NCBI GenBank assembly: GCA_964612665.1
Contig: CAZTCI010000003.1
Coordinates: forward strand, 128,969-192,968
DNA length: 64,000 nt
Reading direction: 5' to 3'
Source of the DNA: an uncultured Planctomycetales bacterium
Lineage (GTDB): Bacteria > Omnitrophota > Gorgyraeia > Zapsychrales > JAHFFX01
Part shown: piece after piece, positions 41,405 through 62,537 of the stretch
How positions within the stretch are numbered: the first letter of the stretch is position 1
How the letters are laid out: the number at the start of each line of letters is the position of its first letter
Notes under the pieces: generated by a model
Database searches by the model: none
What the model was told of the DNA's origin: nothing
The model's input: only the letters and a program-made list of their open reading frames with translations
Translations under genes and position numbers: made by a program

Positions 41405-41410
41405 ATTAGT

Positions 41411-42697: not shown

Positions 42698-42703
42698 TTC
42701 TGG

Positions 42704-44131
42704 CTAATATGCCCCTTTCCCTTTAATAACTACAGGAAAAGTCTGAAATAAAATGTTTAGATCCAACCAAAAAGACCAGTTATTAATGTACCAAATATCC
42801 CATCTTAATAGACGGGAAAAAGAAATATCGCTGCGGCCGCGAATCTGCCATAATCCGGTGATTCCTGGCCGGACCTCTAAGCGTTTTAGCTGCCGGAAAT
42901 CTTCTTTTTCCACCTGATGAATCGGCAGCGGCCGCGGTCCGACAAAACTCATTTCTCCTTTAACCACATTAATAATCTGGGGCAACTCATCTAAGCTGTA
43001 CTTCCGCAAAATTTGTCCAAAAGGTGTAACCCTCGGATCTTTCTTAATTTTAAAAATCGGACCGTCCACTTCATTTTGGTGGTGTAATTTAGGCAACAAA
43101 TCATCGGCATTGAAAACCATGCTGCGGAATTTATACATTTTAAAAATCCGTCCTCCCCGGCCATACCGCTGAGACTGATAGAAAACCGGTCCGGGGCTAT
43201 CAAGCTTAATCATCAAAGCAATCACGAGCAAAATAGGCAAAAATAATATAAAAGCGCATAAGCCCATAAAAAGGTCAAAAATTCTTTTGCCCGATTGTTT
43301 GCTAGAATGTTCCGCATCACAATATTCCAAAATGGGAATGAAACCAATGTTGTATTTACAAAATTCTCCCGTCGTCAATTCGAATCCCTGCGGCACAACG
43401 CGGACAGTCACGTGCAGATCTTTGGCTTGTTCAAGCAAATTTAGAAAGACCCGGCTGTCATGGTGAATCGTAATAAAAACTTTATTAACAAATTCTTTTC
43501 GCGATATTTGCATGAAATCGGAAAGCTTTCCCAATACTTTTAAAGATGAATCCGGATAAGGTGTCCCGATTTTAAAATCATCCAGAAAACCGATGACCTT
43601 AATTCCAAGCTCGGGCTTGGCCTGAATTTCATGGGCCAGCGCCCGTCCGACTTTACCGGCGCCGATAATAACTGCGTTGAAATTATTATAACCACGTGAC
43701 ACAAGGAAATTCACAAAATACCGTTTCAAGATCCGCCACAACGACAAAAAGAAAATCTGCGACAAAACGGTAATTACAAAAATCGTCCGCGGAAAGCCTT
43801 CGATCTTAAAAATATATTTGACCACAATAATTAAAAGCGCAGCCAATCCCACCGATTTCACAACCGTCCAAACCTCAACCGATTCGCCTAATTCCCGTCG
43901 GGTTTGATATAGATTGTTGGCGTTATTGACAAAAATAACAGAGACTAACCAGGCGATAAAAATCAAACGGAAATAATTGGAGGATTCAAATAATAAATAA
44001 TCAAACCGGACGGGGAAAGATAAAAGCTCTTGTCGGGCCCAACAAGCGCCGTAGATAGATAAATAGAGGAAGAATAAATCAATGCCGATGTAGGCAAGTT
44101 GGATAACAACGTGTTTAGAAATGAATTTCAT
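42704..44131 (-). CDS. Initiating polyprenyl-phosphate sugar-1-phosphate transferase (WbaP/WcaJ family)
   Basis: Four or five N-terminal TM helices precede a Rossmann-like domain. The C-terminal sugar transferase domain reads KRIFDLFMGLCAFILF...GPRP...PGITGLWQI. Confidence 0.85.
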   Translation of the reverse strand: MKFISKHVVIQLAYIGIDLFFLYLSIYGACWARQELLSFPVRFDYLLFESSNYFRLIFIAWLVSVIFVNNANNLYQTRRELGESVEVWTVVKSVGLAALLIIVVKYIFKIEGFPRTIFVITVLSQIFFLSLWRILKRYFVNFLVSRGYNNFNAVIIGAGKVGRALAHEIQAKPELGIKVIGFLDDFKIGTPYPDSSLKVLGKLSDFMQISRKEFVNKVFITIHHDSRVFLNLLEQAKDLHVTVRVVPQGFELTTGEFCKYNIGFIPILEYCDAEHSSKQSGKRIFDLFMGLCAFILFLPILLVIALMIKLDSPGPVFYQSQRYGRGGRIFKMYKFRSMVFNADDLLPKLHHQNEVDGPIFKIKKDPRVTPFGQILRKYSLDELPQIINVVKGEMSFVGPRPLPIHQVEKEDFRQLKRLEVRPGITGLWQIRGRSDISFSRLLRWDIWYINNWSFWLDLNILFQTFPVVIKGKGAY

Positions 44132-44136
44132 AACAA

Positions 44137-44916
44137 TTAATGTGATTGTACCGACTGTGGTTTCGGTTTAAATAGATCGCCCAAGGCCAGATAAATAAAA
44201 ATACTGTTGCCAACCAGATACCTTTTCCACAAACGCCGTGGTTCACAAATCAGACGGAAAAACCATTCGAGCCCGGCTCGCTGCATCCAACGCGGGGCCT
44301 GCTTTTTAACGCCCGATAGAAAATCAAACGCGGCGCCCACGCCTATCATGACCGGCACATCCAATTTATCGCGGTGGTTTTTCATCCAAAAATCTTGTTT
44401 GGGCGAACCTAAACTAACCCACAAAATATCCGGCTGTGATTTATTAATCAATTCTAAAACATCTTCTTTCTCCGGATGAAAATCTTTCGTAAATTCCGGT
44501 GAATAATGGCCGACAATATTGATCTGTGGAAATTCCGTTTTTAATTTAGTTATCAATTTTAAACAAACTTCTGCCGTTGAGCCATAAAAAAAATGTTTAT
44601 AATCTTCGCGCTGGCTGACCAAACAAACTTCTTGCATCAAATCCGGGCCATAAGTCCGGGCGATTGTTTTGTGACCTTTGAGTCTGGCGAGCCAAACAAC
44701 AGGAACTCCATCGGGCGTTACCATTCCTGCTTCATTCACGATCTTATAGTAAGCTGAATCTCTACGGCATTCAACGATCGTTGAAACCGGCGCTACGCAA
44801 ATATACGTTTTATATTTATTTTTGATCCAAGTACCAATGTAGTCCGCTGCAGAAGATAAATTCACCGCGCTGACGCGCACGCCGCAGATGTCGACTGAAG
44901 GAATCGGGTTTGTCAT
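44137..44916 (-). CDS. WecB/TagA/CpsF family glycosyltransferase
   Basis: Family similarity runs over the full 259 aa. Confidence 0.8.
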   Translation of the reverse strand: MTNPIPSVDICGVRVSAVNLSSAADYIGTWIKNKYKTYICVAPVSTIVECRRDSAYYKIVNEAGMVTPDGVPVVWLARLKGHKTIARTYGPDLMQEVCLVSQREDYKHFFYGSTAEVCLKLITKLKTEFPQINIVGHYSPEFTKDFHPEKEDVLELINKSQPDILWVSLGSPKQDFWMKNHRDKLDVPVMIGVGAAFDFLSGVKKQAPRWMQRAGLEWFFRLICEPRRLWKRYLVGNSIFIYLALGDLFKPKPQSVQSH

Positions 44917-46166
44917 GAGGTTAATAATTTCTCATAAATGCCGCAAGCTCGTTTAGCGATATTATCCCAGTCATATGCCTGCACAATCTCCCGCGAAATG
45001 CGTCCTTGAGTTTTTAGTTGATTAAGCTTAAAAAGTTTAATGACCGCGGCACTAATCGTCGCCGGATCATTGTTAGCTAACACAAGGCCATTACGTTCCT
45101 GGTCAACGAGCCAAGGTTGAGCGGTCGTGATAACCGGTAAACCGCAGGCCATGGCTTCAAGCGTGCTGACACTGGAACCGGGATAAGAAAACGCACAAAT
45201 ATAAATATCAGACAAAGCATAATAGCGATACAAATCTTTTTCCGGGACTTCTTGAAAATGCCGGATGTGAGTTTGTAATCCGTTGGCGTCAATTAATTGT
45301 TTCAATTCTCCTTCGAGATAACCTTTGCCTACAATTATTAGTTTGGCTTGAGGGATTTGTTGAAGAATTTCCGGTAAAGCCAGAATAATTTTGTCAACCC
45401 CTTTGTCCGCTGCCAGCCGATTGACGGTAATTAAAACCAAGTCGTTGTCTTTTAAACCAAGCGTCTCGCGTTTTATCTGCGTATTTAAAAAGCTGTCGAC
45501 CGAACCAACGTCTGTCCCGACGGGCAATACATGGCTGCGTTTAAGATCCAGCTCAAAAAGGTTTGAAACTTCCTTAAGATACACCTCTTCTTCAAATAAA
45601 ACCGCCTCTGATTTTTTAAAAATAGTTTCCATCGGTTTGATTTTGAAAAAATATTGAACAGGATATTTTAATATAAGACTGTTGTTCTCACGAGTGGAAA
45701 TTTTTACTTTTTCTTTTTTAATATTCTGCGTTCGACGTCCGATAAGACTTAGAATATTTAAAGGATTAATAATGGAAATCGGATTGGTGAGATAATTGTC
45801 CGTAAAAATTTGCGAAACAACCAGCTTGCGTTTAGACAATTGTAAATATTGGTAACTCACCATATCAAAGCTGTGCAGGATATCAAAATTAATTTTTTGC
45901 AGATAACCGGCGAGCTTTTGGTTAAAAAGGTGAACGCCGAACCAGCCGATAGGATACTCTAAATACCAGTAAATCGCCGGCGGCAAAAAGGTGTATTGAA
46001 TCGATTCGAAATTTTCCAAACGCGGGTTTCCCTTATCTAACGGCGCGACAATTTCAACATCAAGGCCTTTTTTCTTTAAAGCTTTCGCGAAATAATAAAC
46101 ATATTTTTGAACGCCGCCTACAGGGTGAAACGGATAAACGCTTTTGGCCGCTAGAATAATTTTCAT
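44913..46166 (-). CDS. Glycosyltransferase family 4
   Basis: A C-terminal GT-B domain with an EAMACGLPVI-type motif is present. Confidence 0.75.
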   Translation of the reverse strand: MKIILAAKSVYPFHPVGGVQKYVYYFAKALKKKGLDVEIVAPLDKGNPRLENFESIQYTFLPPAIYWYLEYPIGWFGVHLFNQKLAGYLQKINFDILHSFDMVSYQYLQLSKRKLVVSQIFTDNYLTNPISIINPLNILSLIGRRTQNIKKEKVKISTRENNSLILKYPVQYFFKIKPMETIFKKSEAVLFEEEVYLKEVSNLFELDLKRSHVLPVGTDVGSVDSFLNTQIKRETLGLKDNDLVLITVNRLAADKGVDKIILALPEILQQIPQAKLIIVGKGYLEGELKQLIDANGLQTHIRHFQEVPEKDLYRYYALSDIYICAFSYPGSSVSTLEAMACGLPVITTAQPWLVDQERNGLVLANNDPATISAAVIKLFKLNQLKTQGRISREIVQAYDWDNIAKRACGIYEKLLTS

Positions 46167-46921
46167 AGTTTACAAGCGACTGCTGTCACATCCCAAGTAT
46201 TAGAACTAATTTTCCCGTCGATATTAAGAAAAGGATAAAAGTCCAAGACTTCTAGCCCGCATTGCTTAAAAGTGGTTTTGATTTCCTCAGGCGAGAAATA
46301 ACGCAAGATATGCTTCTCTCTCAAAAGATTTTTTGTATTTTTCGAATCTAATAACCGGCATGTGTATTTCACTTCACATAGGTTTCGCTTGGTTAATAAA
46401 CGTGTTTCAGACCGGCGTTCAACTTTTTTATTGTTCCACTCAAAAACTTTCCGTTTTTTCGCCGTGTAATGTTTCACAACCGCGGGAGCATTCCAAAAAT
46501 CCAGAATAAAAAGCGATCGTTGACCCATGTGATTACTAATATTCATCAAGGTTTGCTTAATGTCGTGGTCTTTTATTAAATAATCAAAGACCGAGAACAT
46601 ACAAATAATCAGATCAAATTTTTGTGAGAATTGAAACCGTTGCAACGGTTGGCAAGACAACTTTGCTTGCAACATTTTCTGCTTCAATTTCATTTTAGCC
46701 ACGCTCAACATATCTTTCGATGCGTCCATGCCGGTCACTACATATCCTCGTTCGGCCAATGGGATTAAATGATTCGCCGTGCCACAACCTAAATCGAGAA
46801 TGGTTTTGAAAGAATTAATGTTATGCCGACGGGCTAAGGCTTCTAGGAAAAGACATTCTTCCTTGTAATCTTTGGTTTGATAGAACGCGTCGTAATAGCG
46901 GGCGTAGGTTTTAAAAACCAT
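46163..46921 (-). CDS. Class I SAM-dependent methyltransferase
   Basis: The SAM-binding motif ILDLGCGTANH is present. Confidence 0.7.
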   Translation of the reverse strand: MVFKTYARYYDAFYQTKDYKEECLFLEALARRHNINSFKTILDLGCGTANHLIPLAERGYVVTGMDASKDMLSVAKMKLKQKMLQAKLSCQPLQRFQFSQKFDLIICMFSVFDYLIKDHDIKQTLMNISNHMGQRSLFILDFWNAPAVVKHYTAKKRKVFEWNNKKVERRSETRLLTKRNLCEVKYTCRLLDSKNTKNLLREKHILRYFSPEEIKTTFKQCGLEVLDFYPFLNIDGKISSNTWDVTAVACKL

Positions 46922-48094
46922 TTAGGCATGACCTTTAATTTTTTTGATGGCGTGGCAGACGGTTCGAATTTCTGACTCAGTTAAACCACTTGAGGAAGGA
47001 AGATAAAATCCGGTTTGCGAAATGCGTTCAGTTACTGGGAATTTTTCTTTAGGGCACAAACCCATTTTCTTAAAAATAGGCTGACGGTGCATCGGAATAA
47101 AAAATGTCCGGGTTTCGATGCCGCTTTCATACAGCTTTGTCATTAATGTATCGCGGTTCATGCCAAAATTTTTGTCGACCAAAACACCGTACATCCAATA
47201 AACGTTTTTTGTTTCTGGTCTTTCAATTGGCAAAGTAAGACCTCGAACATCTTTTAATAAGGTTTGATACTTTGAAGCATTGTTCCGACGGCGTTCAATA
47301 AATTCATTGATTTTTTCAAACTGGGCCAGACCTAACGCGGCTTGAAGATTGGTCATCCGGAAATTAAATCCGATTTCTTTGTGAAAAAATCTTTTTTTCT
47401 TCAGAAACGCCAGGTTTCTCAGCAAGCGAGCGCGTTCAGCGATGCGCGGATTATTGGTAATGACCATTCCACCTTCGCCGCTCGTTATAATTTTGTTAGC
47501 GTAAAAACTAAAAATACCGACGTGACCGATGCCGCCGGCCACTTTTCCTTTATACGTCGCGCCGTGCGCTTCGGCGGCGTCTTCAATCACCATGAGTTTG
47601 TATTTCTTCGCCAGCGCTATAATCGAATCCATATCACAAGGATGCCCGTAGATATGAACCGGCATAATCGCTTTGGTACGTTTGGTTATTTTCTTTTCGA
47701 TTAAAGCCGGATTAAGGTTCCAGGTGTCAGGCTCAACATCCACGAAGATAGGTTTCGCTCCACAATAAATGACCGCAAAGGCGCAGGCGGCGATTGTAAA
47801 ATCTGGAATAATTACTTCATCGCCAGGGCCAATGCCTAGCGCGGCGACAGCCAGATGTAACGCGGTTGTGCCGCTTGTTGTCCCGACGCCAAAATGAACG
47901 CCGCAATAAGCACTAAATGCGTTTTCAAAGGCTTCCAGGTAACGCCCCCCAGATGAAATCTCGTTTTTCTCGATACAGTCGACGAGATATTTTTTTTCGT
48001 TGCCGGTTATGAGTGGTGTGCAGACTTGAATCATAATGATAAATGATTTTTTACACTTGGGGCGCTTCACGTGCCGTAAAAGTCGGCGCCCCAA
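46922..48094 (-). CDS. DegT/DnrJ/EryC1-family PLP-dependent sugar aminotransferase
   Basis: The motif DAAEAHGATYKGK...SFYANKIITSGEGG is present. The start is probably the internal MIQVCTP. Confidence 0.9.
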   Translation of the reverse strand: MGRRLLRHVKRPKCKKSFIIMIQVCTPLITGNEKKYLVDCIEKNEISSGGRYLEAFENAFSAYCGVHFGVGTTSGTTALHLAVAALGIGPGDEVIIPDFTIAACAFAVIYCGAKPIFVDVEPDTWNLNPALIEKKITKRTKAIMPVHIYGHPCDMDSIIALAKKYKLMVIEDAAEAHGATYKGKVAGGIGHVGIFSFYANKIITSGEGGMVITNNPRIAERARLLRNLAFLKKKRFFHKEIGFNFRMTNLQAALGLAQFEKINEFIERRRNNASKYQTLLKDVRGLTLPIERPETKNVYWMYGVLVDKNFGMNRDTLMTKLYESGIETRTFFIPMHRQPIFKKMGLCPKEKFPVTERISQTGFYLPSSSGLTESEIRTVCHAIKKIKGHA

Positions 48095-48113
48095 GCCCGC
48101 GTTTTTATTAGCG

Positions 48114-48512
48114 CTACAAATCCCGCCGATTCTCCGGCGTATACGGTCCTTGCTTCACTTCGAGCATGACGGTTTTTTCCAACATTTCAAAACTATGCCC
48201 GCCGTTCATTAAAAGCAGTGTGTCACCTGTCTTAACAATACGCGAACAAACCCATTTATCTTCCGTCGAATAAAACGCCACCTTCACTTTTCCCGTCTCA
48301 ATATACAAAACCTCCTGCGGCGGTTGATCCGACTCGATATGCACCGGCGTATGCTTATGCGGCTTAATTCTTTTTCCCGGCGGATGGATAAGTTTACCGA
48401 TTTGAATAAGGCTGTCGTTAGAAGTGTAAAAATGCACGCCCTCTTCCAAATCATTTTTGTAAACGATCTTCGCCAGAATAACACCGTCGTGCTGGATTGT
48501 TTCTTTTTCCAT
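48114..48512 (-). CDS. Cupin-fold protein, possibly a sugar keto-isomerase/epimerase (WxcM/FdtA-like)
   Basis: The 132-aa cupin has HKH. It lies adjacent to the DegT aminotransferase. Confidence 0.45.
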   Translation of the reverse strand: MEKETIQHDGVILAKIVYKNDLEEGVHFYTSNDSLIQIGKLIHPPGKRIKPHKHTPVHIESDQPPQEVLYIETGKVKVAFYSTEDKWVCSRIVKTGDTLLLMNGGHSFEMLEKTVMLEVKQGPYTPENRRDL

Positions 48513-48525
48513 AAATTTTAGAGCT

Positions 48526-49428
48526 TTAAGCGAACTTTAGCACAGCCCGCATTTTATCCATCACTTTATTTCTTAATCTCATTCGGTTTTTAAAATAATT
48601 AGCCACCGCTTCAAAAACTTCCGGTGTTTCTTTAATGATCTCAGGATATCTAGTCACAGGATGATCCAAAAGGGAAGTTTCAAATCGTTTCGTCCTATAA
48701 GTATTGGTGCCCGTTCCATCAAGACCGATATTTTTGACGAGAGAAAAGGTTGGCACCAGAGTCAAACCATTTCGAAAAAATATACTGGCGGCCCACCGGA
48801 TATCCCAGCCCCCAATCCGCCCCTTCACCTGGTCTTGTAATAGACCATAATAATCATGAGAATTCTTAAAATTATACTCATACTTCATTTTCTCGTCAGT
48901 GAATCTAGCCAATAATTTGGTGCCGCTGGGTTCAAAATATTTCCACGCGCGGGCCCACGTGGCCCATCCCCACCCGACACTGCCGCGCAAAAATCCGGAT
49001 TCGGCGTTCAGGGATTTTATAGGATACATATATCCGCTGATTTCCATAACTTTCTCTTCGTTTGAGTACCGTTCCAAAGCTGCGTTCATATAATTCAAAA
49101 AATGCGAAGACAATACCAGATCATCTTCCAACACGATCACCCGTCCATGCTCAGCACAAAAACGTGTTACAGTATCAATGACTTGCCGCGGACAACCGCG
49201 GTTCTCCACAGAAGCATGTATCTCAACTTTTTGACACCACATTCTGCTTTTAACGACATCTTTGACCGCATTAATTTTTTCTTGGTCAGCCTCAGTCTTA
49301 GGCCCGTCGATAAAGACATGTAATTCACTCGATTTCGCTTCGGCATTTGCGGTTAAAGATTCTAAAACATTACGCACATGATCCGGACGTTTATAAGCAA
49401 ATAAAACAATGGGGGCTAACTTTGTCAT
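48526..49428 (-). CDS. Putative GT-A fold glycosyltransferase
   Basis: The N-terminal motif PIVLFAYKRPDHVRNVLESL and an acidic VLEDDLVL motif are present. Confidence 0.5.
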   Translation of the reverse strand: MTKLAPIVLFAYKRPDHVRNVLESLTANAEAKSSELHVFIDGPKTEADQEKINAVKDVVKSRMWCQKVEIHASVENRGCPRQVIDTVTRFCAEHGRVIVLEDDLVLSSHFLNYMNAALERYSNEEKVMEISGYMYPIKSLNAESGFLRGSVGWGWATWARAWKYFEPSGTKLLARFTDEKMKYEYNFKNSHDYYGLLQDQVKGRIGGWDIRWAASIFFRNGLTLVPTFSLVKNIGLDGTGTNTYRTKRFETSLLDHPVTRYPEIIKETPEVFEAVANYFKNRMRLRNKVMDKMRAVLKFA

Positions 49429-49443
49429 TGAATTATCCAGACT

Positions 49444-50610
49444 TCATGGTCTCCATTTTGAAATCGGCGGGATCTTATTGATATTCACACGATCTTTGTA
49501 CCGGTTGGCCACGTCCATAATCTCAACCAAAAGACTGTCATCTAAAGTCGTCGGCGTTAAACCTTTCTTCAGAAAACATTCGTTGGACACCTTCAGATCA
49601 TTTTTATCCGCTTCCCGGCGAGGATTTTCAATAAAAGCAATTTTCGCGCCTGTCAGCGCCGAAACTTTTTTAGCCAGATCAACCAAACGGTGGGTCTCGG
49701 TCATCTGGTTATAAATGTGAACGCGATCGCCTTTTTTCGGCGGATTAATGAGCGCGAGCTCAATACAACGCACGGAATCCTTAATATGGATGAAAGCTCG
49801 CGTCTGTCCGCCGGTCCCATAAACTGTTAAGGGATGCCCGACGGCCGCTTCCATCAAAAATCGGTTCAAAACAGTTCCGTAATCACTATCATAATCAAAA
49901 CGGTTGATCAACCGCTCGTCTTTTTTCGTTTGATCCGTATCGGTTCCCCAGACGATTCCTTGATGAAGGTCGGTAATACGCAGTTCATAATTTTTGTTAT
50001 AAAAATAAAAAAATAAAGCGTCCTGGGTTTTGGTCATATGATAAATACTGCCCGGATCCGCCGGATAAAGAATCTCTTTTTCAATCCCGCCCTCGGGACC
50101 CGTGACATTAATGCGCAGATACCCTTCGGGAATAACCGCACCCAGCGTTCCATAACCATACACACCCATGGTTCCCAAATGAACCACATGAGTATCAAGT
50201 TTCAATTCAACAATGGCGCTGAGCAAATTATTCGTGGCATTTAAATTATTATCAACGGTATACCGGCGGTGTTTGGAGGATTTCATGGAATAAGGCGCCG
50301 CACGCTGCTCGGCGAAATGAACAACCGCATCCGGCTTTTGCTTTTGAAGGACTTCGAGAAGATAGTGGTAATCTTTCGCCAGATCAAAATTAATAAATTC
50401 AATTTTCTTTCCGCTAATCTCCTGCCAAGCTTTAATGCGGTCGCCGATAGGCCGGATGGGGGTTAAAGACCAGCATTCGAGTTCATTATCAATATTCCGA
50501 CGGGATAAATTATCAACAATGACAACGTCATGTCCTTTGTGAGACAAGTGGAGCGATGTAGGCCAGCCACAGAAACCATCCCCACCGAAGATAATTACTT
50601 TCATCGACAA
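49444..50610 (-). CDS. sqdB: UDP-sulfoquinovose synthase (SQD1/SqdB family SDR)
   Basis: Near-collinear similarity to plant SQD1 was recalled from memory. Matching segments are GGDGFCGW, VDNLSRR, VVHFAEQRAAPYSM, LGTMGVYGY, LNRF..EAAVGHPLTVYGTGGQTRAFIHI and the C-terminal KWR. Confidence 0.85.
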   Translation of the reverse strand: MSMKVIIFGGDGFCGWPTSLHLSHKGHDVVIVDNLSRRNIDNELECWSLTPIRPIGDRIKAWQEISGKKIEFINFDLAKDYHYLLEVLQKQKPDAVVHFAEQRAAPYSMKSSKHRRYTVDNNLNATNNLLSAIVELKLDTHVVHLGTMGVYGYGTLGAVIPEGYLRINVTGPEGGIEKEILYPADPGSIYHMTKTQDALFFYFYNKNYELRITDLHQGIVWGTDTDQTKKDERLINRFDYDSDYGTVLNRFLMEAAVGHPLTVYGTGGQTRAFIHIKDSVRCIELALINPPKKGDRVHIYNQMTETHRLVDLAKKVSALTGAKIAFIENPRREADKNDLKVSNECFLKKGLTPTTLDDSLLVEIMDVANRYKDRVNINKIPPISKWRP

Positions 50611-50719
50611 CCTCTCTTTTTATTAAACTCCCATCAAACTGTGTCGTCTAAAGTCCAATCAAACTTTAAAACCAAACCTTCTACGAAATACCATAAAATA
50701 ACGCCTGGATACATTTTTC

Positions 50720-51769
50720 TTAAGCACTCGGTTGATAAATCCGTCCGTTTTTTTTCGACCAAGCGAAATTAATCCGTTTAAATTTACGGATCAAGCTCGT
50801 ATAGCGGTTATCGTTGTTGGTATTGGTAATGGAACACGTGCCGCAGCCTTTTAACTCGCTTCTCTTATTATGAAACATTAAATCCAAGAAATGTCGTCGG
50901 GAAGCCGAATGCCAGATTTGAGCCAGAGTGTTATTCTTTAAGTCCCCGTATTCCGTCGCGCCTTTCAAATCCATACAGCATTTGGAAATAAATCCTGAAC
51001 TCGACAGCGTGACATTATTAAAGACAAAGGAACAAAAACTTTTGGCGGGTTTATAAACTTTCTGCGGTTTGTTAAACGATTCGTTCCAATATTCCGGACG
51101 CCAAAACGTCACATAATCCGCTTCACCGAAGAGCTCTTTAAATTCTTCACATAAAGCCTTGCCCTGCGAGCGATCATCGCGTCCATTATTGATCTGAATA
51201 AAAACCGGATGGCCGAGCTCCTTATTGCGCTTCAATAAATAACGCATGTTCTTTAACATGACAGGAAATTTCGCGGGCGGCCGCATATCTTCAAAGGTCA
51301 GGCCGTCATGGCCGTCGATGCTGCAGATCAATTGACGGACAACACCGGAGGTTAAAATCAAATCCGCCCGGCGCTCATCCATCAAAACCAAATTATCATT
51401 GAGAATAACATGCGGCCGGAAATGCGGGTGCTCATTCATATATTGGCGGGTTATTGCAATCACTTTCTCAAACTCGGGATAAACAAAAAACTCACCGCTG
51501 ATCGGCCAGTCCATGACTTTAATACGGTATTGTGGATTCTCGGCGATTTCCTTAATGAGCTTCTCATAAATTTTGATGTCCAATGTTTTAGGGCGTTCCA
51601 ATTTTTCCAGAAAACAATATTTACAACGCAAATTACATACCGATGAAAATTCCACCGACAAAATTTTGATATCCCCCAAGGTATTAAACCCTAATTTTAA
51701 ACGCAGGTATCGCAACAACCACACGCCATAATAACCTGCCCATGCCATGCGCTTGATTATTTTTTTCAA
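50720..51769 (-). CDS. Radical SAM / SPASM-domain enzyme
   Basis: The radical-SAM motif CNLRCKYC is present. A C-terminal Cys-rich SPASM/twitch segment reads CCMDLKG...CGTCS. Confidence 0.7.
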   Translation of the reverse strand: MKKIIKRMAWAGYYGVWLLRYLRLKLGFNTLGDIKILSVEFSSVCNLRCKYCFLEKLERPKTLDIKIYEKLIKEIAENPQYRIKVMDWPISGEFFVYPEFEKVIAITRQYMNEHPHFRPHVILNDNLVLMDERRADLILTSGVVRQLICSIDGHDGLTFEDMRPPAKFPVMLKNMRYLLKRNKELGHPVFIQINNGRDDRSQGKALCEEFKELFGEADYVTFWRPEYWNESFNKPQKVYKPAKSFCSFVFNNVTLSSSGFISKCCMDLKGATEYGDLKNNTLAQIWHSASRRHFLDLMFHNKRSELKGCGTCSITNTNNDNRYTSLIRKFKRINFAWSKKNGRIYQPSA

Positions 51770-51867: not shown

Positions 51868-53079
51868 CTAGTTCTTCAACCAACCTACTTGCTTAAGAGA
51901 AATAAATAGTTGTTCGGCTGTAAACCGATGACCATGAGGATTAAAATGAACTTCTCCATTTTTGGGGAAAAACCTCTCTTTTGGTTGACCCTTCATAAGC
52001 GGCAATAAATCCAAAGATTGAATATTGTTTTTCTTAAGCCATGGCTTCAATTCATCAAAATAATTTCTTTCTATCTTAAATTTATCAGATCCCAGGACTT
52101 GTTTTAAAAAATTCGGATCAACCTGGAAATTGATTGGGATCATCAGCAATAAAAATTGGGCGTGGTTCTCTCCAGCAACTTCAGCCATTCCTTTAACCAA
52201 ATCCTTAAAACGCTCTTCTTCTTTAAGCATAACGGCATCACTTTGTTTTTTCAAAATGAATGGAAACGGATCTTCACCCCACCAGGTGTGGTGTTTCTGA
52301 TTTTGTAAATAGGAGCACATTTTTTCCCAGTGGTTATAAAGAAAAACGCAGAAATGACTCTCTCGTAATAATGGGACCCGATAAATTCCTTCACTGCCCA
52401 CGGTTTTATTATCCTCGTTCTTTGAGCGAATAATTCCCTCTCCGTCGACATAGATAGCAGGGTTGCTGACCTGAAGAGGCAGACCTCGTTGATCTTTCTT
52501 AGACCAAACTAAATTTTTGGGATCAATGTCATTACCAATAAAAAAACCATAAATGATAATATCCGGCTTAAATTTAATTCCTTTGTTAACCAGCCAGGCG
52601 TAATGTTCGTCAGGATCCCATCCATCAGCATAACCGGCATTGATCACTTCTACGTTCTGATGATCATGTTGAAAAAGTTTCTCCAGCAACACACTATAAG
52701 TCTCACTGTCATCCACGTACACACCGTAGGTGTAAGAATCGCCCAGAATCAAAATGCGTTTTGTGCCTAGCGGTTTCTGAATCGCAATTTCTTTTCCTCT
52801 TAATCCCAATGAATTCGTGGAAGCCTCGACAAATTTCCCCGGATATTCCATTGAAGGGACCTTATCATGAAAGTTAGGTTTTAATGTGAAGGGAATGATG
52901 TCATCAGGAAGAAAAGTCCCTGTTTGAACCAAGGCTTTAAGCCGAGCGTAAATCGGTTGGGGTTTAAATATCCGCAAGACAACTTCAGCTAACAAAAATA
53001 CAATAAATATAGATAGGCTCGTCGTAAGAATCCAGAAAAATCTTAATTTGCTTGAGGAAATTTTTGGATCATCTTTCAT
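51868..53079 (-). CDS. Membrane-anchored SGNH/GDSL hydrolase
   Basis: An N-terminal TM helix precedes the GDS block ILILGDSYTYG. Confidence 0.6.
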   Translation of the reverse strand: MKDDPKISSSKLRFFWILTTSLSIFIVFLLAEVVLRIFKPQPIYARLKALVQTGTFLPDDIIPFTLKPNFHDKVPSMEYPGKFVEASTNSLGLRGKEIAIQKPLGTKRILILGDSYTYGVYVDDSETYSVLLEKLFQHDHQNVEVINAGYADGWDPDEHYAWLVNKGIKFKPDIIIYGFFIGNDIDPKNLVWSKKDQRGLPLQVSNPAIYVDGEGIIRSKNEDNKTVGSEGIYRVPLLRESHFCVFLYNHWEKMCSYLQNQKHHTWWGEDPFPFILKKQSDAVMLKEEERFKDLVKGMAEVAGENHAQFLLLMIPINFQVDPNFLKQVLGSDKFKIERNYFDELKPWLKKNNIQSLDLLPLMKGQPKERFFPKNGEVHFNPHGHRFTAEQLFISLKQVGWLKN

Positions 53080-53150: not shown

Positions 53151-53981
53151 TTATTTATTTTTCATTATGATCCGAAATTCCGGATCATACCAGCCTTTGC
53201 CATTGGCTAAAATTGTGGTCTGTTTAAATTGCTTCATCCAGAAAGGATCACCGGATTGATCTTTATAATTTTCGCAAATAAAACAATAACACCAATACAA
53301 TCCAGCACTATAAGAACCTAAAGGCTTGCCTATAATCTGCAGAAGCCTCATGACAACTTGCAACAACCGCAGTAATACCAGACAAAGCCAATTGTATCTA
53401 ACCTTTGTTTTTAACCATATTCCAACGTTGTCTTTATTCCAGACCGCTCCCCACATCCGAAAGCGAATAATCTTAAAAAAATTCTGATGTAGAAAGGCGC
53501 GAAGAAATCTTGATGTCATTAAGCCTGGATAAATCATGAGATGGCCGCCCCAAGAATTCGGGATACTTAAAACTAATTTCCCCCGGGGTTTTAGAACCCG
53601 CTGGATTTCCGCCAGCGCCTGATAAGGATTTTGCAGATGTTCAAAAACCTCCAGGCATATTACCGTATCAAATTGATTATCTTTAAACTTTAATTTCTGA
53701 TTAGAAATATCAGCCAGCTGACTGTCTTTTGTAAATTCTTTTATGCCTTCTAACGCCGATTCCGAAACATCAACAGCGTAAAATTCTACTTTCTTATGTT
53801 GTCGAATATGCTGAGCAATCTCTCCTTTGCCGACTCCAATTTCTAAAACGCAATCATTGTCTTGCACTTCGTCCACGGCCCACTTAAGACGGTCGGTAAG
53901 GATATTGTTCTGTGTTTGGTAGATTGTTTTGGAGGCGGTAATAATATTATTCATTTGGTCAGTTTGAGACAAGCAATACAC
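53151..53981 (-). CDS. Class I SAM-dependent methyltransferase
   Basis: The motif VLEIGVGKGE is present, with a Methyltransf_11-like core. Confidence 0.75.
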   Translation of the reverse strand: MYCLSQTDQMNNIITASKTIYQTQNNILTDRLKWAVDEVQDNDCVLEIGVGKGEIAQHIRQHKKVEFYAVDVSESALEGIKEFTKDSQLADISNQKLKFKDNQFDTVICLEVFEHLQNPYQALAEIQRVLKPRGKLVLSIPNSWGGHLMIYPGLMTSRFLRAFLHQNFFKIIRFRMWGAVWNKDNVGIWLKTKVRYNWLCLVLLRLLQVVMRLLQIIGKPLGSYSAGLYWCYCFICENYKDQSGDPFWMKQFKQTTILANGKGWYDPEFRIIMKNK

Positions 53982-54832
53982 TCCGAGGCTGCCAGGTTTT
54001 TGGGATTAGAAGTAACGGTGTTATCGCGAACGTCAAAATAGATTCCTGTTTGGCAAGAAGCTTTGTCGGCATAATTCCATTGATTGTTTTCATATTTAAA
54101 ATAAGCCGTTGTCATCGATTCAGGCGCGAAGGTCTCCTGCAATTTATCAATCATAGATTCATCAAAAATCTGAAACCACCGGTGATTTTTATAGAGCCCA
54201 TACGGCACCGTAATATAAACCGTTCCTCCTTTTTTTAAAATACGTTTAAATTCTGTAATAGCCTTCAGATATTCATATTTTTGATAATTGAAGCGGTCTT
54301 CTTTTCCCGTATAAAATGAATTGTCCATGCCAACGTGTTCCAAACTTGAAATACAAACAACGGCGTCGAAGTAGTCGGATTGAAAACAAGTTGACCGCAG
54401 ATCGCCATATATATAGGAAGGCGACTGGGCGGAAAAGCACATTCCCTCATAGGCGAGCGTCATAATATATAATTGCCGGTCTCGTAAATTGGCCGTGGAT
54501 AAAATTTCGCCGTGGTTGAGACTCGAACCGGCATCGAGAATAATTTTGTCAGAAGCTTTAAGCTGCGCGAAAACCCATGGATATTCAACCGCGCGTTCAT
54601 CCAGCCCTCGGGCGTAACCCTTAGGCAATTGGGATCGACGAAAAGTTTCCAGATTCTTTTGAATAACTTGAAAAATATAATTAAATTTATAAATTGAATA
54701 ACCTAAACTCCATGGCCGCTGACCGCTCATCTGATAATAAAAACATAGTAAATTTCTTAAAGGTTGGCATCGCGAGACGACAGATCTCAGAAACTTTTTA
54801 AAATCAGTCATTTTAGATAATAGATTTATCAA
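53951..54832 (-). CDS. Putative SAM-dependent methyltransferase-like protein
   Basis: It has a Rossmann-like ILDAGSSLNHG motif. Confidence 0.45.
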   Translation of the reverse strand: MINLLSKMTDFKKFLRSVVSRCQPLRNLLCFYYQMSGQRPWSLGYSIYKFNYIFQVIQKNLETFRRSQLPKGYARGLDERAVEYPWVFAQLKASDKIILDAGSSLNHGEILSTANLRDRQLYIMTLAYEGMCFSAQSPSYIYGDLRSTCFQSDYFDAVVCISSLEHVGMDNSFYTGKEDRFNYQKYEYLKAITEFKRILKKGGTVYITVPYGLYKNHRWFQIFDESMIDKLQETFAPESMTTAYFKYENNQWNYADKASCQTGIYFDVRDNTVTSNPKNLAASECIACLKLTK

Positions 54833-56123
54833 AAAGAAGCATAGGGTTAAAGGCCCTCAGCTGTAAAAAAAACATATCGCGTGTTTTTCGGCTAAACAGG
54901 TTTGACAAAGAAGTCGCGAAGAATTGGGAAATGACCGTCGCGATAGCTGCGCCGTTGATTCCCCATTTAGGGATTAAGAAAAGATTTAAAATGATATTAA
55001 AAACGGCGCCAGCCACCGCATAAATCAGCGTATAGATCTGAAGTTTTTCGGTGATCATCCATTTGCTCCGGGCAACGCCCAAGAACACAAAAATCCCGGC
55101 CCACACATGAATCACCAAAACCTGCGCCGCCGGCAAATAAGCCTGCCCAAATAAAATCTTAATTAACGGGCCCGCCAAAAACATTAAACTCAATGAAAAC
55201 CCAATTGCCAGCCACACGAGAACGGAAAATAAAACTTCCAAACGGTTTAAATACAAAACCTCATCTCTTTTCTTGGCGTTCACAATCGCCGGGAACAAAG
55301 ACGCGGTAACCAACATGGGGATAAAATAAAAGCCCTCACTAATTTTGACCGCAGCAGAGTAATATCCGACGGCAGCAACGCCCAGCATATTCTTGATCAT
55401 GATCTGATCAATCCGCATATAAATAGAAATCGCAACGCCTGACAGCGCGAGCGGCCACGATTCTCTAAACAACTGAGCAAGTCTATCCCAGTTAAAAAGC
55501 AATTTGATGGGAGCTACTTTTTTAAGCTCATAAAGAAAAATGAGACCAATACAAATCAACACCGCTTCCAGCAATAAGACTTCGGCGAACGCTATAAGCG
55601 GGGCCTTGATATAAATGAGAAAAATATAAATTAACGATGTAACGAACAATGAAAACAGTTGCGCATAAGTAACATACTTTGAAGCCACCTTAGACTGAAA
55701 ATAGAAATCAATAACATCCGCCGTCTGAAAAAACATCCGCAACGACATAATCCAAACCATAACCGCCGTATAAAAGGGGATAGAAAAAATCCAAATACAT
55801 AAGCTGATAAGAATGAACGCCAAAAAACTTCCAATCAACTTTAAAAAAAAAGCCTCCGTTAAAATCTGGTTTTTTGCCCCGGCATGATGAACCAGATCCC
55901 TGACCACAACCGCTTCCAGTCCCAAATCTGAAAAAAGATTAAACAGAAAAACAAAGCTTAAAGCATAACTGTACAACCCGAAACGCTCCGGCCCGAGATA
56001 GCGAACGACCATCGCCCAAACAGTCACAACCATTACCGCGCGGATAATTTTTTCTAAAAAAAGAAATCCCGTATTGCTCGCGTATTTTTGAAATCCGGAA
56101 GACTGTAAAAGCGTCTTGATCAT
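54813..56123 (-). CDS. Wzx-type oligosaccharide flippase (polysaccharide biosynthesis / MOP family)
   Basis: The protein is 436 aa with about 12 TM helices. Confidence 0.7.
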   Translation of the reverse strand: MIKTLLQSSGFQKYASNTGFLFLEKIIRAVMVVTVWAMVVRYLGPERFGLYSYALSFVFLFNLFSDLGLEAVVVRDLVHHAGAKNQILTEAFFLKLIGSFLAFILISLCIWIFSIPFYTAVMVWIMSLRMFFQTADVIDFYFQSKVASKYVTYAQLFSLFVTSLIYIFLIYIKAPLIAFAEVLLLEAVLICIGLIFLYELKKVAPIKLLFNWDRLAQLFRESWPLALSGVAISIYMRIDQIMIKNMLGVAAVGYYSAAVKISEGFYFIPMLVTASLFPAIVNAKKRDEVLYLNRLEVLFSVLVWLAIGFSLSLMFLAGPLIKILFGQAYLPAAQVLVIHVWAGIFVFLGVARSKWMITEKLQIYTLIYAVAGAVFNIILNLFLIPKWGINGAAIATVISQFFATSLSNLFSRKTRDMFFLQLRAFNPMLLFDKSII

Positions 56124-57304
56124 CGTTTGGCGTAACGTTCTTTAGCTTGTTCGTAAATTTTCATCAAATATTCATAATTACGGCCGGGGGTGTAGTGGCT
56201 TTCATATTCTCGACGGGCTTCTTGGCCCATGAATGCCATTCTTTTTTTATCATTCAGGAATTTTTGAAGCTGCTTTGCTAAATCCGCTGCATTGCCTGTC
56301 TCAAACAGAAGCCCAGTTCTCCCTTCAGCAATATATTCTTTAATTCCATCGAGCCGACTCGCGATCACTGGCACACCATAAGAGAACGCTTCAACAATCG
56401 TGCGCGGAAAATTGTCGTGGCAGATCGACGGCACAACAACACACGCGGCAGATTTCAAATGACGAATATAATCTTCATCGGAACAATAGCCCAGGACTTG
56501 AACGCGTTTTAAATTTTCTTGAGCAACGGATTCTTTTATTTCCGTAAGGAGCGGACCTTCACCGATGATTTTCAAAGGGACATCCGGCAGTGAAGTCCAG
56601 GCCCTTAAAAGCACGCGCACACCTTTTTCTGCAGAAATGCGGCCGATGTAAAGTGCGTAACCTTGGTCATTTTCACGGCGGCCGTTTTGGTTTTCATAAA
56701 AATGCGGTTTGACGGTGACCTTTTCCGCTGGAATTCCCGCTTCGCCATGTTTGCGCCGGCTGAATTCCGTCGCCGTAATGTAACCGTCGATCAATTGGTT
56801 CCAAGTTCCTTTCTGCCAGTGCTTGTTTAACATCCGAACAACGAGCGCTGTAAAAAGTTTTGAACCTTTATAACAACCATACTTCACCCCGCGCCAGCGC
56901 GAATGATGCAGACATTCTTCACAATGCCGTCCCTCTCTTAAAAACAACGCATTAGCGCACATCAAACGGTAATTATAAAGACTCTGCACAACCGGGACCT
57001 TTGCGTCACGGCAGGCATAATAAACCGCGGGTGTCACCATAAAGAACGTATTGTAAACATGACAAATATCCGCGGCAAAACCTTTAAGAATGCCTTGAAT
57101 CTCATTGTAAGTCTTTTTGGACCAATCCATTTGAAGGATATGTCTTTGCTTTTCAAGAAAATTGTACTGATTAATTTCAGCGTTGCTACGTTCATATAAA
57201 TAAACCTCATGACCATGCCGTCGGAGTAATTCGCTTTCCGCCTGAAAAACAGCATCTTCGCCGCCGAATTGCTGATAGCGGTTGTGGACCATTAGGATTT
57301 TCAT
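56120..57304 (-). CDS. Glycosyltransferase family 4
   Basis: A GT-B C-terminal domain with EAFSYGVPVI-type motif is present. Confidence 0.8.
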   Translation of the reverse strand: MKILMVHNRYQQFGGEDAVFQAESELLRRHGHEVYLYERSNAEINQYNFLEKQRHILQMDWSKKTYNEIQGILKGFAADICHVYNTFFMVTPAVYYACRDAKVPVVQSLYNYRLMCANALFLREGRHCEECLHHSRWRGVKYGCYKGSKLFTALVVRMLNKHWQKGTWNQLIDGYITATEFSRRKHGEAGIPAEKVTVKPHFYENQNGRRENDQGYALYIGRISAEKGVRVLLRAWTSLPDVPLKIIGEGPLLTEIKESVAQENLKRVQVLGYCSDEDYIRHLKSAACVVVPSICHDNFPRTIVEAFSYGVPVIASRLDGIKEYIAEGRTGLLFETGNAADLAKQLQKFLNDKKRMAFMGQEARREYESHYTPGRNYEYLMKIYEQAKERYAKR

Positions 57305-57418
57305 AACTCGAAATTAAGGAGAGAGTTCTTCTTCGCTCTTATACTTTTGTGTAAGAGCTTCGAAGGAATTCCTGCGAAGCCCAAACATAAGAATATTTGG
57401 GCGAAGCAGAACTCCTCG

Positions 57419-58135
57419 CTACTCTTTAAAGAATTGAGTCTTATTCTTCTCAAAAACATCCTGTGCCGCTTGGAGATCAACCATACGGCCCAAATCAAAC
57501 CACATATCGTTCATCTCAAAGCAGTAAACGGACTGGTTGTTTTGTTTTATACGAAGCATCAATTCAGGCATGCCCAAAATTTCTTTGGAGCGGACAAATT
57601 CCGTGCATTGTTTATTGAGAACATTGATTCCTAAACTTAAAAAAGATTCCGCCTTCGGTTTCTCAACGTAATCCGTCATGAGCAAATTTTTATTAAAAGT
57701 GATGACGCCAAAATCGTTTTGCGTCACGCATTTCTTAACGGCAATCGTCGCCAGGCCTTTTCTTTTTTTGTGGAAGTCGAACAGACTGCGGAAATTTAAA
57801 TCGGTCAACGTATCACCGTTGATGACCAGAAAATTATCTTTCAGTTTTGGAATCGCTTTAAGCGCGCCGGCGGTCCCCAGCGGTTCGTCTTCACGCACGT
57901 AACGGATGGAAACGCCCCAGCGTTTTCCGTCGGCAAAATAAGCTTCAATCAATTCCGCCAGATGCCCGGTTGAAATCACAATATCGGTGATACCATAAAA
58001 TTTAAGCTGGCGGATGATAATTTCAGCGATGGGAAATTCACCGATTGGAATGAGCGGTTTGGGTAAAATCGTTGTGTATGGCCGCAAGCGCGATCCTTTT
58101 CCGCCGGCGAGAATGACCGCCTGCCAATTAGACAT
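57419..58135 (-). CDS. Sugar-1-phosphate nucleotidyltransferase
   Basis: The motif AVILAGGKGSRLRPYTTILPKPL is present. Confidence 0.85.
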   Translation of the reverse strand: MSNWQAVILAGGKGSRLRPYTTILPKPLIPIGEFPIAEIIIRQLKFYGITDIVISTGHLAELIEAYFADGKRWGVSIRYVREDEPLGTAGALKAIPKLKDNFLVINGDTLTDLNFRSLFDFHKKRKGLATIAVKKCVTQNDFGVITFNKNLLMTDYVEKPKAESFLSLGINVLNKQCTEFVRSKEILGMPELMLRIKQNNQSVYCFEMNDMWFDLGRMVDLQAAQDVFEKNKTQFFKE

Positions 58136-59120
58136 TGTAGATCTCCGCTTTATAGTGTTTTAATTTTTCCTGAATCCACGCGCAGGTTTTTTGAAGGCCG
58201 TCTTCCAAAGAAACATCGGGTTTCCAGCGGCAGACTTTTGTTAGTGCGGTGCTGTCGCAGACCAAACGCTCCACTTCACTTTTTCCGGGCCGGAAACGTT
58301 TTTCATCCGTCGTGATTTCAACCGGTTTATCCAAGATTTTTCCGATCAGCGCGGCTAATTCGCGGATGGAAATTTCTCGGTTGCTGCCGCTGTTAAACGT
58401 GAAACCGATCGTTTTGTCATGGAGGGCCACAGTTAAGAAAGCATCGACGGTGTTTGTGACATAATTAAAATCGCGGGTAGTTTCGACATTGCCTAATTTA
58501 ATTTTCTTCTGCCCGGAAAAAATTTGGGTGATGATCGTCGGAATAACTGCGCGGGCGGATTGGCGCGGACCAAAGGTGTTGAAAGGACGAAGTACGGTGA
58601 CAGGAAGATTAAAGGAACGGTAAAAAGAAATCGCAAGCTGGTCGGCGGCGGCTTTGGTTGCCGCGTAAGGTGATTGAGGTTCAATCGGATGTTTCTCATC
58701 CATCGGCACGTATTGAGCTGTGCCAAAAACTTCGCTGGTTGAGGTATGAATAATCCGTCCAACATTCAGCCGGCGCGCCGCTTGCAAAATATTAAGCGTC
58801 CCTTTGACATTGGTGTCGACGTAACTATCCGGAGAATGAAAACTAAATGGAATCCCAATAAGCGCGGCCAAATGAAAAACAATATCTATTCCTTCCATCG
58901 CCTTGGCAACGCCGTGCGGATCGCGGACGTCGCCGGTAAAAACATCCAGTTTACTCAAGAGCTTCGGCGGCAGCGTCTCAAGCCAGCCCCAGCTATTAAA
59001 GGAATTGTAATAAACAAATGCTCTGACTTCGGCGCCTTCTTTAGCTAAACGTTCAGTTAAATGACTTCCAATGAATCCATCAGCACCTGTTACAAGAATC
59101 TTACGTTTTTTCCAAGACAT
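58128..59120 (-). CDS. NAD-dependent sugar epimerase/dehydratase (extended SDR)
   Basis: The nucleotide-binding glycine motif is GADGFIGSH. The catalytic YxxxK appears as YAATKAA. Confidence 0.85.
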   Translation of the reverse strand: MSWKKRKILVTGADGFIGSHLTERLAKEGAEVRAFVYYNSFNSWGWLETLPPKLLSKLDVFTGDVRDPHGVAKAMEGIDIVFHLAALIGIPFSFHSPDSYVDTNVKGTLNILQAARRLNVGRIIHTSTSEVFGTAQYVPMDEKHPIEPQSPYAATKAAADQLAISFYRSFNLPVTVLRPFNTFGPRQSARAVIPTIITQIFSGQKKIKLGNVETTRDFNYVTNTVDAFLTVALHDKTIGFTFNSGSNREISIRELAALIGKILDKPVEITTDEKRFRPGKSEVERLVCDSTALTKVCRWKPDVSLEDGLQKTCAWIQEKLKHYKAEIYNV

Positions 59121-59187
59121 AATTTTTTTCTCAGCCTTTTTCTGTAGACCACTGCTTTTTAAAAAAAATTCCGGAGCATTATAGAGC

Positions 59188-61389: not shown

Positions 61390-61417
61390 AGTTAATTAAA
61401 ACTGTGCGATTGATTTT

Positions 61418-62503: not shown

Positions 62504-62537
62504 GCGCTTCGGAGAGTTTAGAATCTAAAACGATTCT

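Follow-up and report, generated by a model that had tools for sequence, protein, structure and literature searches.

The 64-kb window analyzed here, a stretch of 64,000 nucleotides of contig CAZTCI010000003.1 that belongs to one metagenome-assembled genome (MAG), carries a gene for a putative uridine diphosphate (UDP)-sulfoquinovose synthase of the SqdB/SQD1 type, which is embedded in a glycan cluster of about 25 kb. The best-supported reading, to which we assign a probability of about 0.6-0.7 from the sequence comparisons described below, is that the sulfoquinovose enters a surface polysaccharide made by a Wzx/Wzy system. Three adjoining genes carry most of the argument, coding for the predicted synthase, a glycosyltransferase (GT) of the GT-A fold and a radical S-adenosylmethionine (SAM) enzyme:

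49444-50604, minus strand: SqdB-type UDP-sulfoquinovose synthase (predicted), 386 aa from the ATG; the open reading frame (ORF) reaches a TTG at 50610
48526-49428, minus strand: GT13-like GT-A glycosyltransferase, candidate sulfoquinovosyltransferase, 300 aa, 15 bp downstream of the SqdB gene
50720-51769, minus strand: BtrN-like twitch-domain radical SAM enzyme, 342-349 aa

An earlier interpretation made from the letters alone (referred to as the sequence-only reading) had placed a short-chain dehydrogenase/reductase (SDR) and a radical SAM/SPASM protein at these sites, and both genes are indeed present as minus-strand ORFs at 49444-50610 and 50720-51769. Database gene calls begin the SDR at an ATG two codons inside the ORF (50604). 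The motifs quoted for the SDR, GGDGFCGW, VVHFAEQRAAPYSM and GTMGVYG, were all found in the translation, and the proposed collinearity with plant SQD1 was borne out by an alignment of residues 4-387 with residues 3-383 of structure 1qrr (333 bits, E = 3e-98), while the other SDR families in the PDB scored less than 50 bits each. The protein is 62.2% identical to SqdB of Sinorhizobium meliloti, which is encoded in an sqdB-sqdD operon (bioRxiv 10.1101/2022.08.18.504050), and 44.9% identical to SQD1 of Arabidopsis thaliana; the mutual identity of the latter two is 43.4%. A homologue search, in which the 8000 candidates sharing most words were scored, yielded the closest relatives with 75-78% identity from uncultured bacteria, one of them named Candidatus Omnitrophica. 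These are followed by a large set with 67-72% identity from cyanobacteria (Thermosynechococcaceae and Moorena; about 70% for the cyanobacterial homologues), Sulfobacillus and many Alphaproteobacteria.

We then compared the active-site positions known from the literature on SQD1 and on the archaeal homologue Agl3. All of the 17 positions checked are identical to either SQD1 or S. meliloti SqdB, namely His95, Arg101, Thr145, Met146, Tyr182, His183, Lys186 and 10 further ones, and the catalytic residues Thr145, Tyr182 and Lys186 are the same in both reference enzymes. In Agl3, His95, Arg101, Met145, Tyr182 and Lys186 are essential, as their alanine mutants are inactive (PMC4388408), and all five are present in the window SDR. 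The fingerprint [ST]MG...Yx3K described for UDP-sulfoquinovose synthases (PMC8987622) is represented by GTMGVYG and SIYHMTK. In a neighbor-joining tree of 85 sequences (one per 50%-identity cluster, rooted with the LegB-like SDR of the window; a distance tree without bootstrap), the SDR falls into a tight subclade whose sister group is formed by the sequences from S. meliloti, cyanobacteria and Rhodobacterales; SQD1 diverges at a much deeper point. This places it inside the SQD1/SqdB clade and brackets it by experimentally supported members. No active-site change specific for the subclade was found in the SDR; the sole fixed difference, R113, is at no known catalytic position. The assignment to the SQD1/SqdB clade in the sequence-only reading is thus upheld by collinearity, the conserved active-site positions, the phylogenetic bracket and the controls. 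By every criterion that can be tested on its sequence, the SDR belongs to the SqdB/SQD1 family, and we read it as a UDP-sulfoquinovose synthase.

As a side observation on the family, the Agl3-essential Arg101 is replaced by proline in 30 of 89 aligned SqdB-family sequences (representatives P0361-P0510), the window protein not being one of them. This suggests a sizeable paralogous branch that possibly does not make UDP-sulfoquinovose.

The sequence-only reading had located the SDR among GTs, Wzx and Wzy, which proved correct: Wzx, two Wzy_C proteins, an initiating transferase and several GTs are encoded in the same cluster. The combination of Bac_transf, Polysacc_synt and two Wzy_C proteins with a GT2, two GT4, a GT26 and the GT-A protein characterizes it as a Wzx/Wzy cluster; Wzz, Wza or Wzc were not identified within the window.

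The 300-aa protein encoded directly downstream of the SDR showed no Pfam match above cut-off, and a profile search against the PDB recovered POMGNT1 at only E = 0.05. Its AlphaFold model (predicted local distance difference test, pLDDT, 93.7) retrieved POMGNT1 (E = 7e-13) and GnT-I as top folds, both of which are GT13 enzymes. The protein therefore models confidently as a GT13-like glycosyltransferase of the GT-A fold, and the GT-A motif E101-D102-D103 is invariant in 35 homologues. The family comprises 2062 homologues, many of them labelled GT2 or sugar transferase. A relationship to SqdD was ruled out by BLASTP against the S. meliloti protein (E = 1.9). No SqdD-type (GT8) transferase is present beside the SDR, and no Glyco_transf_8 match was obtained among the scanned proteins.

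The SqdB and GT-A genes occur as a pair in five other loci, always among glycan genes. These loci come from Omnitrophota-type metagenomes, one of them (L048 and L049 sharing a line) per gene order in the following list:

L007 (Omnitrophota MAG): SqdB, GT-A, GT4, radical SAM, methyltransferase
L038: SqdB, GT-A, GT4
L048 and L049: SqdB, GT-A, radical SAM, second radical SAM
JGI contig 18237: SqdB, GT-A, small protein, DegT, methyltransferase, GT4 ... Wzy

Two further loci are syntenic with the window (L004 from a Planctomycetales MAG, and L047) and show the order radical SAM, GT4 (384-391 aa), a 242-244-aa gene, cupin and DegT. In these, the GT4 and the 242-244-aa gene occupy the exact spot of SqdB and GT-A in the window. 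Because a different transferase cassette is found at this place, SqdB and GT-A appear to form a swappable unit of donor synthase and transferase. The assumption of a surface glycan as the destination of sulfoquinovose now draws on this recurrent and swappable cassette, and not on gene position alone as in the sequence-only reading.

Another set of SqdB genes in glycan clusters was encountered in Rhodobacterales. In Paracoccus sp. TK19116 (L042, 6001-7933) and on plasmid p_SM1903_1 of Pelagovum pacificum (L044, 12001-13907), the gene for an SqdB homologue is directly followed by one for 3'-phosphoadenosine-5'-phosphosulfate (PAPS) reductase, an enzyme that serves as a sulfite source. Both SqdB homologues are 67-68% identical to the window SDR, and both pairs sit in ABC-transporter glycan clusters with GT2 and GT4 genes, to which a sulfotransferase is added in Paracoccus and a DUF4422 protein in Pelagovum. 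The pair looks like a self-sufficient cassette for sulfite and a sulfo-sugar outside the lipid pathway, and, as far as gene content can tell, it lends independent support to a use of SqdB in glycan clusters. PAPS reductase genes are also present near sqdB in Moorena and Sulfobacillus. No characterization of the two Rhodobacterales systems or of the window system was found in the literature. The surface-polysaccharide destination proposed by the sequence-only reading is therefore strengthened by the conserved cassette, its swap and the SqdB-PAPS reductase pairs, and is the probable one.

The strongest alternative, which we consider rather unlikely, is that the UDP-sulfoquinovose is used, like that of cyanobacteria and rhizobia, for the lipid sulfoquinovosyl diacylglycerol (SQDG), with the position in the cluster being incidental and the transferase being either encoded elsewhere or represented by a GT4 of the window. 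SQDG synthesis is the only established use of SqdB in bacteria. Moreover, several cyanobacteria have sqdB and sqdX at separate sites, and no GT4 gene adjoins sqdB in the cyanobacterial loci L041 and L045. Against this alternative, the cassette of SqdB and GT-A was met again solely within glycan clusters, where another GT cassette can take its place. Furthermore, both GT4 proteins of the window have counterparts of 40-56% identity in loci devoid of SqdB (L004, L005, L013 and L018), and an SqdD-like protein is absent by comparison with S. meliloti SqdD, to which the GT-A protein of the window is unrelated.

Several observations weigh against a surface glycan as the destination or against parts of our interpretation. 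The two window GT4s belong to the same CAZy family as SqdX/SQD2, so the lack of SqdX in the window, as stated in the sequence-only reading, is unprovable by domain content; in addition, a gene for SqdX, SqdD or SqdA may lie elsewhere in the genome, beyond the 64 kb. A scan of ORFs with 150 aa or more in the region of 1-30 kb, which left out the part from about 30 to 38.5 kb, revealed no gene for sulfur assimilation or sulfite supply. The donor specificity of the GT-A protein is uncertain because its family is large and distant members occur without SqdB, as in the Chitinophaga locus L040 and in L009, where they stand alongside FdtA/DegT genes. At least in L004, L005, L009, L010, L019 and L047, the available sequence around the radical SAM gene also lacks SqdB, and the function we propose for the radical SAM enzyme is derived by analogy from structural relatives of about 15% identity. 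Finally, the SDR reached 353.5 bits with the NCBIfam equivalog model NF041015, the cut-off of which is 575, the model being too narrow to discriminate. This score was discarded as evidence on the SDR: its shortfall is uninformative because verified SQD1 (484.7 bits) and the cyanobacterial homologues (344-348 bits) likewise fall below the cut-off.

The radical SAM gene is called either as 349 aa (from a TTG at 51769) or as 342 aa (from an ATG at 51748), and the protein matches the Pfam families Radical_SAM (E = 1e-8) and SPASM (E = 2e-7). Among 28 aligned homologues, the cluster motif C38-x3-C42-x2-C45, the auxiliary motif C239-x12-G252-x4-C257 ... C302-x2-C305 and an extra Cys142 within an ICSIDG motif are invariant. 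No further C-terminal cysteines except C258 are conserved in this alignment, hence there is no second auxiliary cluster. Judged from these motifs, the enzyme shows the 4-Cys twitch arrangement of BtrN and not the 7-Cys arrangement of SPASM proteins. BtrN, the 2-deoxy-scyllo-inosamine dehydrogenase of butirosin biosynthesis, the product of which is transaminated by the DegT-family enzyme BtrS, is the best PDB match (E = 1e-4 with the single sequence and E = 5e-11 with the family profile). It also ranks first in a Foldseek search with the AlphaFold model (pLDDT 88.5; BtrN structure 4m7t, TM-score 0.70 on the target), followed by the sugar-nucleoside decarboxylase BlsE (7vob) and then by peptide maturases, the anaerobic sulfatase maturase anSME, MoaA and DesII.

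The radical SAM family consists of 119 homologues (E <= 1e-3) in 5.8 billion sequences, and its named members belong to Omnitrophota, Planctomycetota and one Rhodospirillaceae MAG. Every inspected locus of this family is a glycan cluster. The window, L007, L048 and L049 have SqdB close to the radical SAM gene, with three gene orders among them. JGI contig 18237 and L038 have SqdB but no member of this BtrN-like family; the SPASM protein of L038 shares no more than 27% identity over 146 aa with the radical SAM enzyme of the window. An obligate coupling of the two genes was ruled out, as each occurs without the other (the six loci without SqdB listed above on one side, contig 18237 and L038 on the other). 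Most often, the radical SAM gene is accompanied by homologues of the two methyltransferase-like genes upstream of it and by a cupin-DegT(-methyltransferase) cassette; the cupin-DegT-methyltransferase cassette accompanies it in L004, L009, L010, L019, L047 and L048. From its sequence and distribution, we regard the enzyme as a glycan-associated BtrN-like twitch enzyme that forms a separable module and is no dedicated partner of SqdB.

Some side observations concern the same neighborhood. The two methyltransferase-like genes overlap by 31 nt. In L004 and L017, homologues of both lie beside the radical SAM gene; in L006 and L007, this holds for one of them. This pair is the tightest recurrent neighbor of the radical SAM gene apart from the cupin-DegT cassette. 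A second, unrelated radical SAM gene directly follows that of the twitch enzyme in L048 (3800-4873) and L049 (6099-7187), and L038 carries, likewise unrelated, genes for a B12-binding radical SAM protein and a different SPASM-like protein (3568-5073 and 6555-7583). The related glycan loci containing SqdB are thus unusually rich in radical SAM enzymes.

The sequence-only reading had considered epimerization, C-methylation or dehydration of a sugar for the radical SAM enzyme. By analogy to BtrN, the most likely chemistry would be the abstraction of a hydrogen with conversion of a sugar hydroxyl to a ketone. Epimerization or elimination stay as alternatives, and the lack of any match to a cobalamin-binding or other methylase domain makes C-methylation unlikely.

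Co-occurrence of the SDR with a radical SAM enzyme raises a second alternative, namely that the SDR has UDP-glucose 5,6-dehydratase activity here or employs some nucleophile in place of sulfite, and that the resulting exo-glycal is passed to the radical SAM enzyme to form a C6-branched or chain-extended sugar. A possible model for such a route would be the pair of TunA, an SDR-type 5,6-dehydratase, and TunB, a radical SAM enzyme, in tunicamycin biosynthesis. Agl3 and SQD1 release UDP-glucose-5,6-ene when sulfite is lacking (PMC4388408, PMC8987622). The co-occurrence of SqdB, GT-A and radical SAM genes in three gene orders (window; L007; L048/L049) would fit such a pathway, as would the negative result for sulfite-supply genes among the window ORFs scanned (at least 150 aa, 1-30 kb). 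We nevertheless consider it very improbable: all tested residues of the SDR match those of sulfite-using enzymes with no active-site change specific for its subclade, members of the radical SAM family often occur in loci devoid of SqdB, and contig 18237 has SqdB but none of them.

Equally improbable is a role of the radical SAM protein as a maturase of peptides or proteins unrelated to sugars, either of the type acting on RiPPs (peptides made by the ribosome and modified after translation) or of the anaerobic sulfatase-maturing type: weak NCBIfam matches to such maturases (18-47 bits) are far below the cut-offs, and the SPASM peptide maturases among the fold matches are preceded by BtrN and BlsE, the two best ones, which act on sugar-like small molecules, whereas the protein has the 4-Cys twitch-type motif only and no gene for a precursor peptide or a sulfatase is nearby. 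The maturase outcome that the sequence-only reading had named as a possible refutation does not apply here, because the inspected related loci are all glycan clusters without a precursor-peptide or sulfatase context. Sequence motifs and the structural model therefore classify the radical SAM protein as a probable sugar-tailoring enzyme and not as a peptide maturase.

The cluster consists of 23 co-directional genes on the minus strand, which extend from about 63.8 kb to 39.0 kb and are separated by gaps of -31 to +119 nt, those in the downstream part (39000-46166) being only -4 to +6 nt. It starts with genes for a TylF-like methyltransferase, a GT2, a 733-aa protein, a LegB-type 4,6-dehydratase, a sugar-1-phosphate nucleotidyltransferase, a GT4 and Wzx, which are followed by two methyltransferase-like genes, the gene for an SGNH-like protein, the radical SAM gene, the SDR gene and that for the 300-aa GT-A protein. 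The genes for a WbuC-like cupin, a DegT aminotransferase, a methyltransferase and a GT4 come next, and the run ends with those for a WecG-type GT26, a Bac_transf initiating transferase, two Wzy_C proteins and a LamG protein. A scan of 48-53.5 kb for promoters and terminators yielded nothing above chance. The individual features surrounding the three central genes are as follows, from upstream to downstream:

54813-63323, minus strand: upstream part of the cluster, Wzx through TylF-like methyltransferase
59188-61389, minus strand: 733-aa protein without Pfam domain
57419-59120, minus strand: sugar-1-phosphate nucleotidyltransferase and LegB-type 4,6-dehydratase
56120-57304, minus strand: GT4, 394 aa
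54813-56123, minus strand: Wzx flippase (Polysacc_synt)
53151-53981 and 53951-54832, minus strand: two methyltransferase-like genes upstream of the radical SAM gene
51868-53079, minus strand: SGNH/GDSL-like protein, 403 aa, upstream of the radical SAM gene
46163-48512, minus strand: putative amino-sugar cassette of cupin, aminotransferase and N,N-dimethyltransferase
48114-48512, minus strand: WbuC-like cupin
46922-48034, minus strand: DegT/LegC-like aminotransferase
46163-46921, minus strand: TylM1/DesVI-like N,N-dimethyltransferase
39000-46166, minus strand: downstream part of the cluster, GT4 through LamG-domain protein
44913-46166, minus strand: GT4, 417 aa
42704-44131, minus strand: Bac_transf initiating phosphoglycosyl transferase
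39989-42697, minus strand: two Wzy_C polymerase or ligase-like proteins (428 and 468-471 aa)

The last about 140 residues of the 733-aa protein are 46-51% identical to ORFs of the glycan loci L004, L005 and L009. The SGNH/GDSL-like protein has a hydrophobic N-terminus and weak matches below cut-off to the Leptospira esterase families LA_2486/LA_2490; it possibly acts on a glycan as O-acyl esterase or transferase and has no counterpart in the related loci examined. The paired Wzy_C membrane proteins at the end of the cluster may represent a polymerase and a ligase or alternative polymerases. In the first 30 kb of the window, the scanned ORFs are housekeeping genes (HisS, DnaE, GuaA, GuaB, GroEL, CoaX, UvrB, AroB), among which an unrelated second radical SAM protein of 367 aa is encoded (14593-15696, minus strand). 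The sole plus-strand genes found in the window code for an AAA_22 ATPase and an adjoining 236-aa protein of no assigned function (18629-20121).

The genes on either side of the three central ones indicate a further sugar. The methyltransferase at 46163-46921 resembles TylM1 (3pfg, E = 4.5e-15 over residues 7-230) and DesVI, two N,N-dimethyltransferases of sugars, along its whole length, and the upstream SDR is a LegB-type 4,6-dehydratase (TIGR04180, 484 bits vs. a cut-off of 475). Because a TylM1/DesVI-like dimethyltransferase and a LegB-type 4,6-dehydratase are present together, a branch leading to a dimethylamino-deoxy sugar is indicated. Judged from their sequences, the cupin, aminotransferase, dimethyltransferase, LegB and nucleotidyltransferase seem to make up a full pathway for an N,N-dimethylamino-dideoxy sugar. 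Such a decoration is more familiar in macrolide antibiotics than in surface polysaccharides.

From gene content, homology, residue conservation and synteny, we infer the following scheme, in which the use of sulfite, the acceptor, the sulfoquinovose-transferring GT and the substrate and reaction of the radical SAM enzyme are the predicted elements. As in SQD1 and Agl3, the SDR would oxidize UDP-glucose at C4 with its bound NAD+, eliminate water to yield the 4-keto-5,6-ene, add sulfite at C6 and re-reduce C4. The UDP-sulfoquinovose would most likely be used by a GT of the same cluster, for which the GT13-like GT-A protein encoded 15 bp downstream is the best candidate, and this enzyme would place sulfoquinovose on a repeat unit linked to undecaprenyl diphosphate. 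Bac_transf would start the repeat unit, Wzx flip it and Wzy polymerize it, resulting in an anionic, sulfonated surface polysaccharide. SqdB and GT-A would represent a swappable cassette in a hypervariable glycan locus of Omnitrophota/Planctomycetota-type bacteria. The radical SAM enzyme would act as a separate tailoring module with one fully cysteine-ligated auxiliary [4Fe-4S] cluster, abstracting a hydrogen from a sugar carbon to convert a secondary alcohol to a ketone or to catalyze a related radical epimerization or elimination. A nucleotide sugar or a glycan linked to a lipid may be its substrate, and the reaction may supply the cupin/DegT/N,N-dimethyltransferase branch. As a whole, the genes are best explained by a functional UDP-sulfoquinovose synthase that feeds a GT of the same cluster for a surface glycan, which we regard as somewhat better than an even chance.

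A more far-reaching proposal, which we consider doubtful at present, is that an uncultured lineage of the Omnitrophota/Planctomycetota type makes a sulfonated surface polysaccharide containing sulfoquinovose or a further, radical-tailored derivative of it. Examples would be keto- or amino-sulfoquinovose generated by the BtrN-like radical SAM enzyme and the DegT aminotransferase or, by analogy to TunA/TunB, a C6-extended sugar derived from the 5,6-ene intermediate. The sulfoquinovose cycle is framed almost entirely around thylakoid SQDG, with the archaeal N-glycan as the one exception (2026 review; PMC8987622), and the 2026 review frames bacterial sulfoquinovose wholly around SQDG. No report on sulfoquinovose in a bacterial polysaccharide was found in the literature searched. 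If the proposal is true, the window and the marine Rhodobacterales clusters of SqdB and PAPS reductase would point to an environmental pool of sulfoquinovose that stems from neither lipids nor phototrophs, and, provided that these cassettes lead to surface glycans, to an added source of sulfoquinovose for sulfoglycolytic bacteria. The product would be a new kind of permanently anionic surface polymer that is resistant to sulfatases due to its C-S bonds, and the gene pairs would offer a practical handle for finding glycan-acting sulfoquinovosyltransferases by expression. The 119-member BtrN-like radical SAM family is uncharacterized and glycan-specific and merits an assay. New aspects are a known enzyme in an unreported pathway context and an uncharacterized radical SAM family.

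Compared to known systems, the SDR shares with SqdB, SQD1 and Agl3 (EC 3.13.1.1) its length, the domain order, the GxxGxxG NAD motif, the T-M-G...Y-H-x-[ST]-K signature and the residues His95 and Arg101. In contrast to these, its gene is not located beside sqdX or sqdDC but inside a Wzx/Wzy cluster with a GT-A partner, and the protein falls into a subclade of its own (75-78% mutual identity), members of which were seen in uncultured Omnitrophota-type bacteria only. With BtrN (PDB 4M7T), the radical SAM enzyme of the window has in common the radical SAM core with a twitch domain, one auxiliary [4Fe-4S] cluster with the pattern Cx12-13Gx4C...CxxC and the proximity to a DegT-family aminotransferase. 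It differs by an identity of only about 16%, about 90 additional residues in an N-terminal helix and a C-terminal extension, the invariant Cys142 and the Cys257-Cys258 pair, and by its polysaccharide instead of aminoglycoside context. The Rhodobacterales pairs likewise show SqdB among GT and polysaccharide export genes and not among genes of the lipid pathway, but they use ABC-transporter export and bring their own sulfite source, whereas the window has Wzx/Wzy and no sulfur-assimilation gene was found among its scanned ORFs. A precedent for the proposed pathway is that of Agl3 from Sulfolobus acidocaldarius, in which UDP-sulfoquinovose is used, as proposed here, for a polyprenol-linked glycan and not for a lipid head group. 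Agl3 is a more distant homologue of the window SDR, which scores 353 bits with the archaeal NCBIfam model, and its pathway is archaeal and dolichol-linked with transfer to protein by AglB, whereas that of the window would, from the genes alone, employ bacterial Wzx/Wzy machinery for repeat units.

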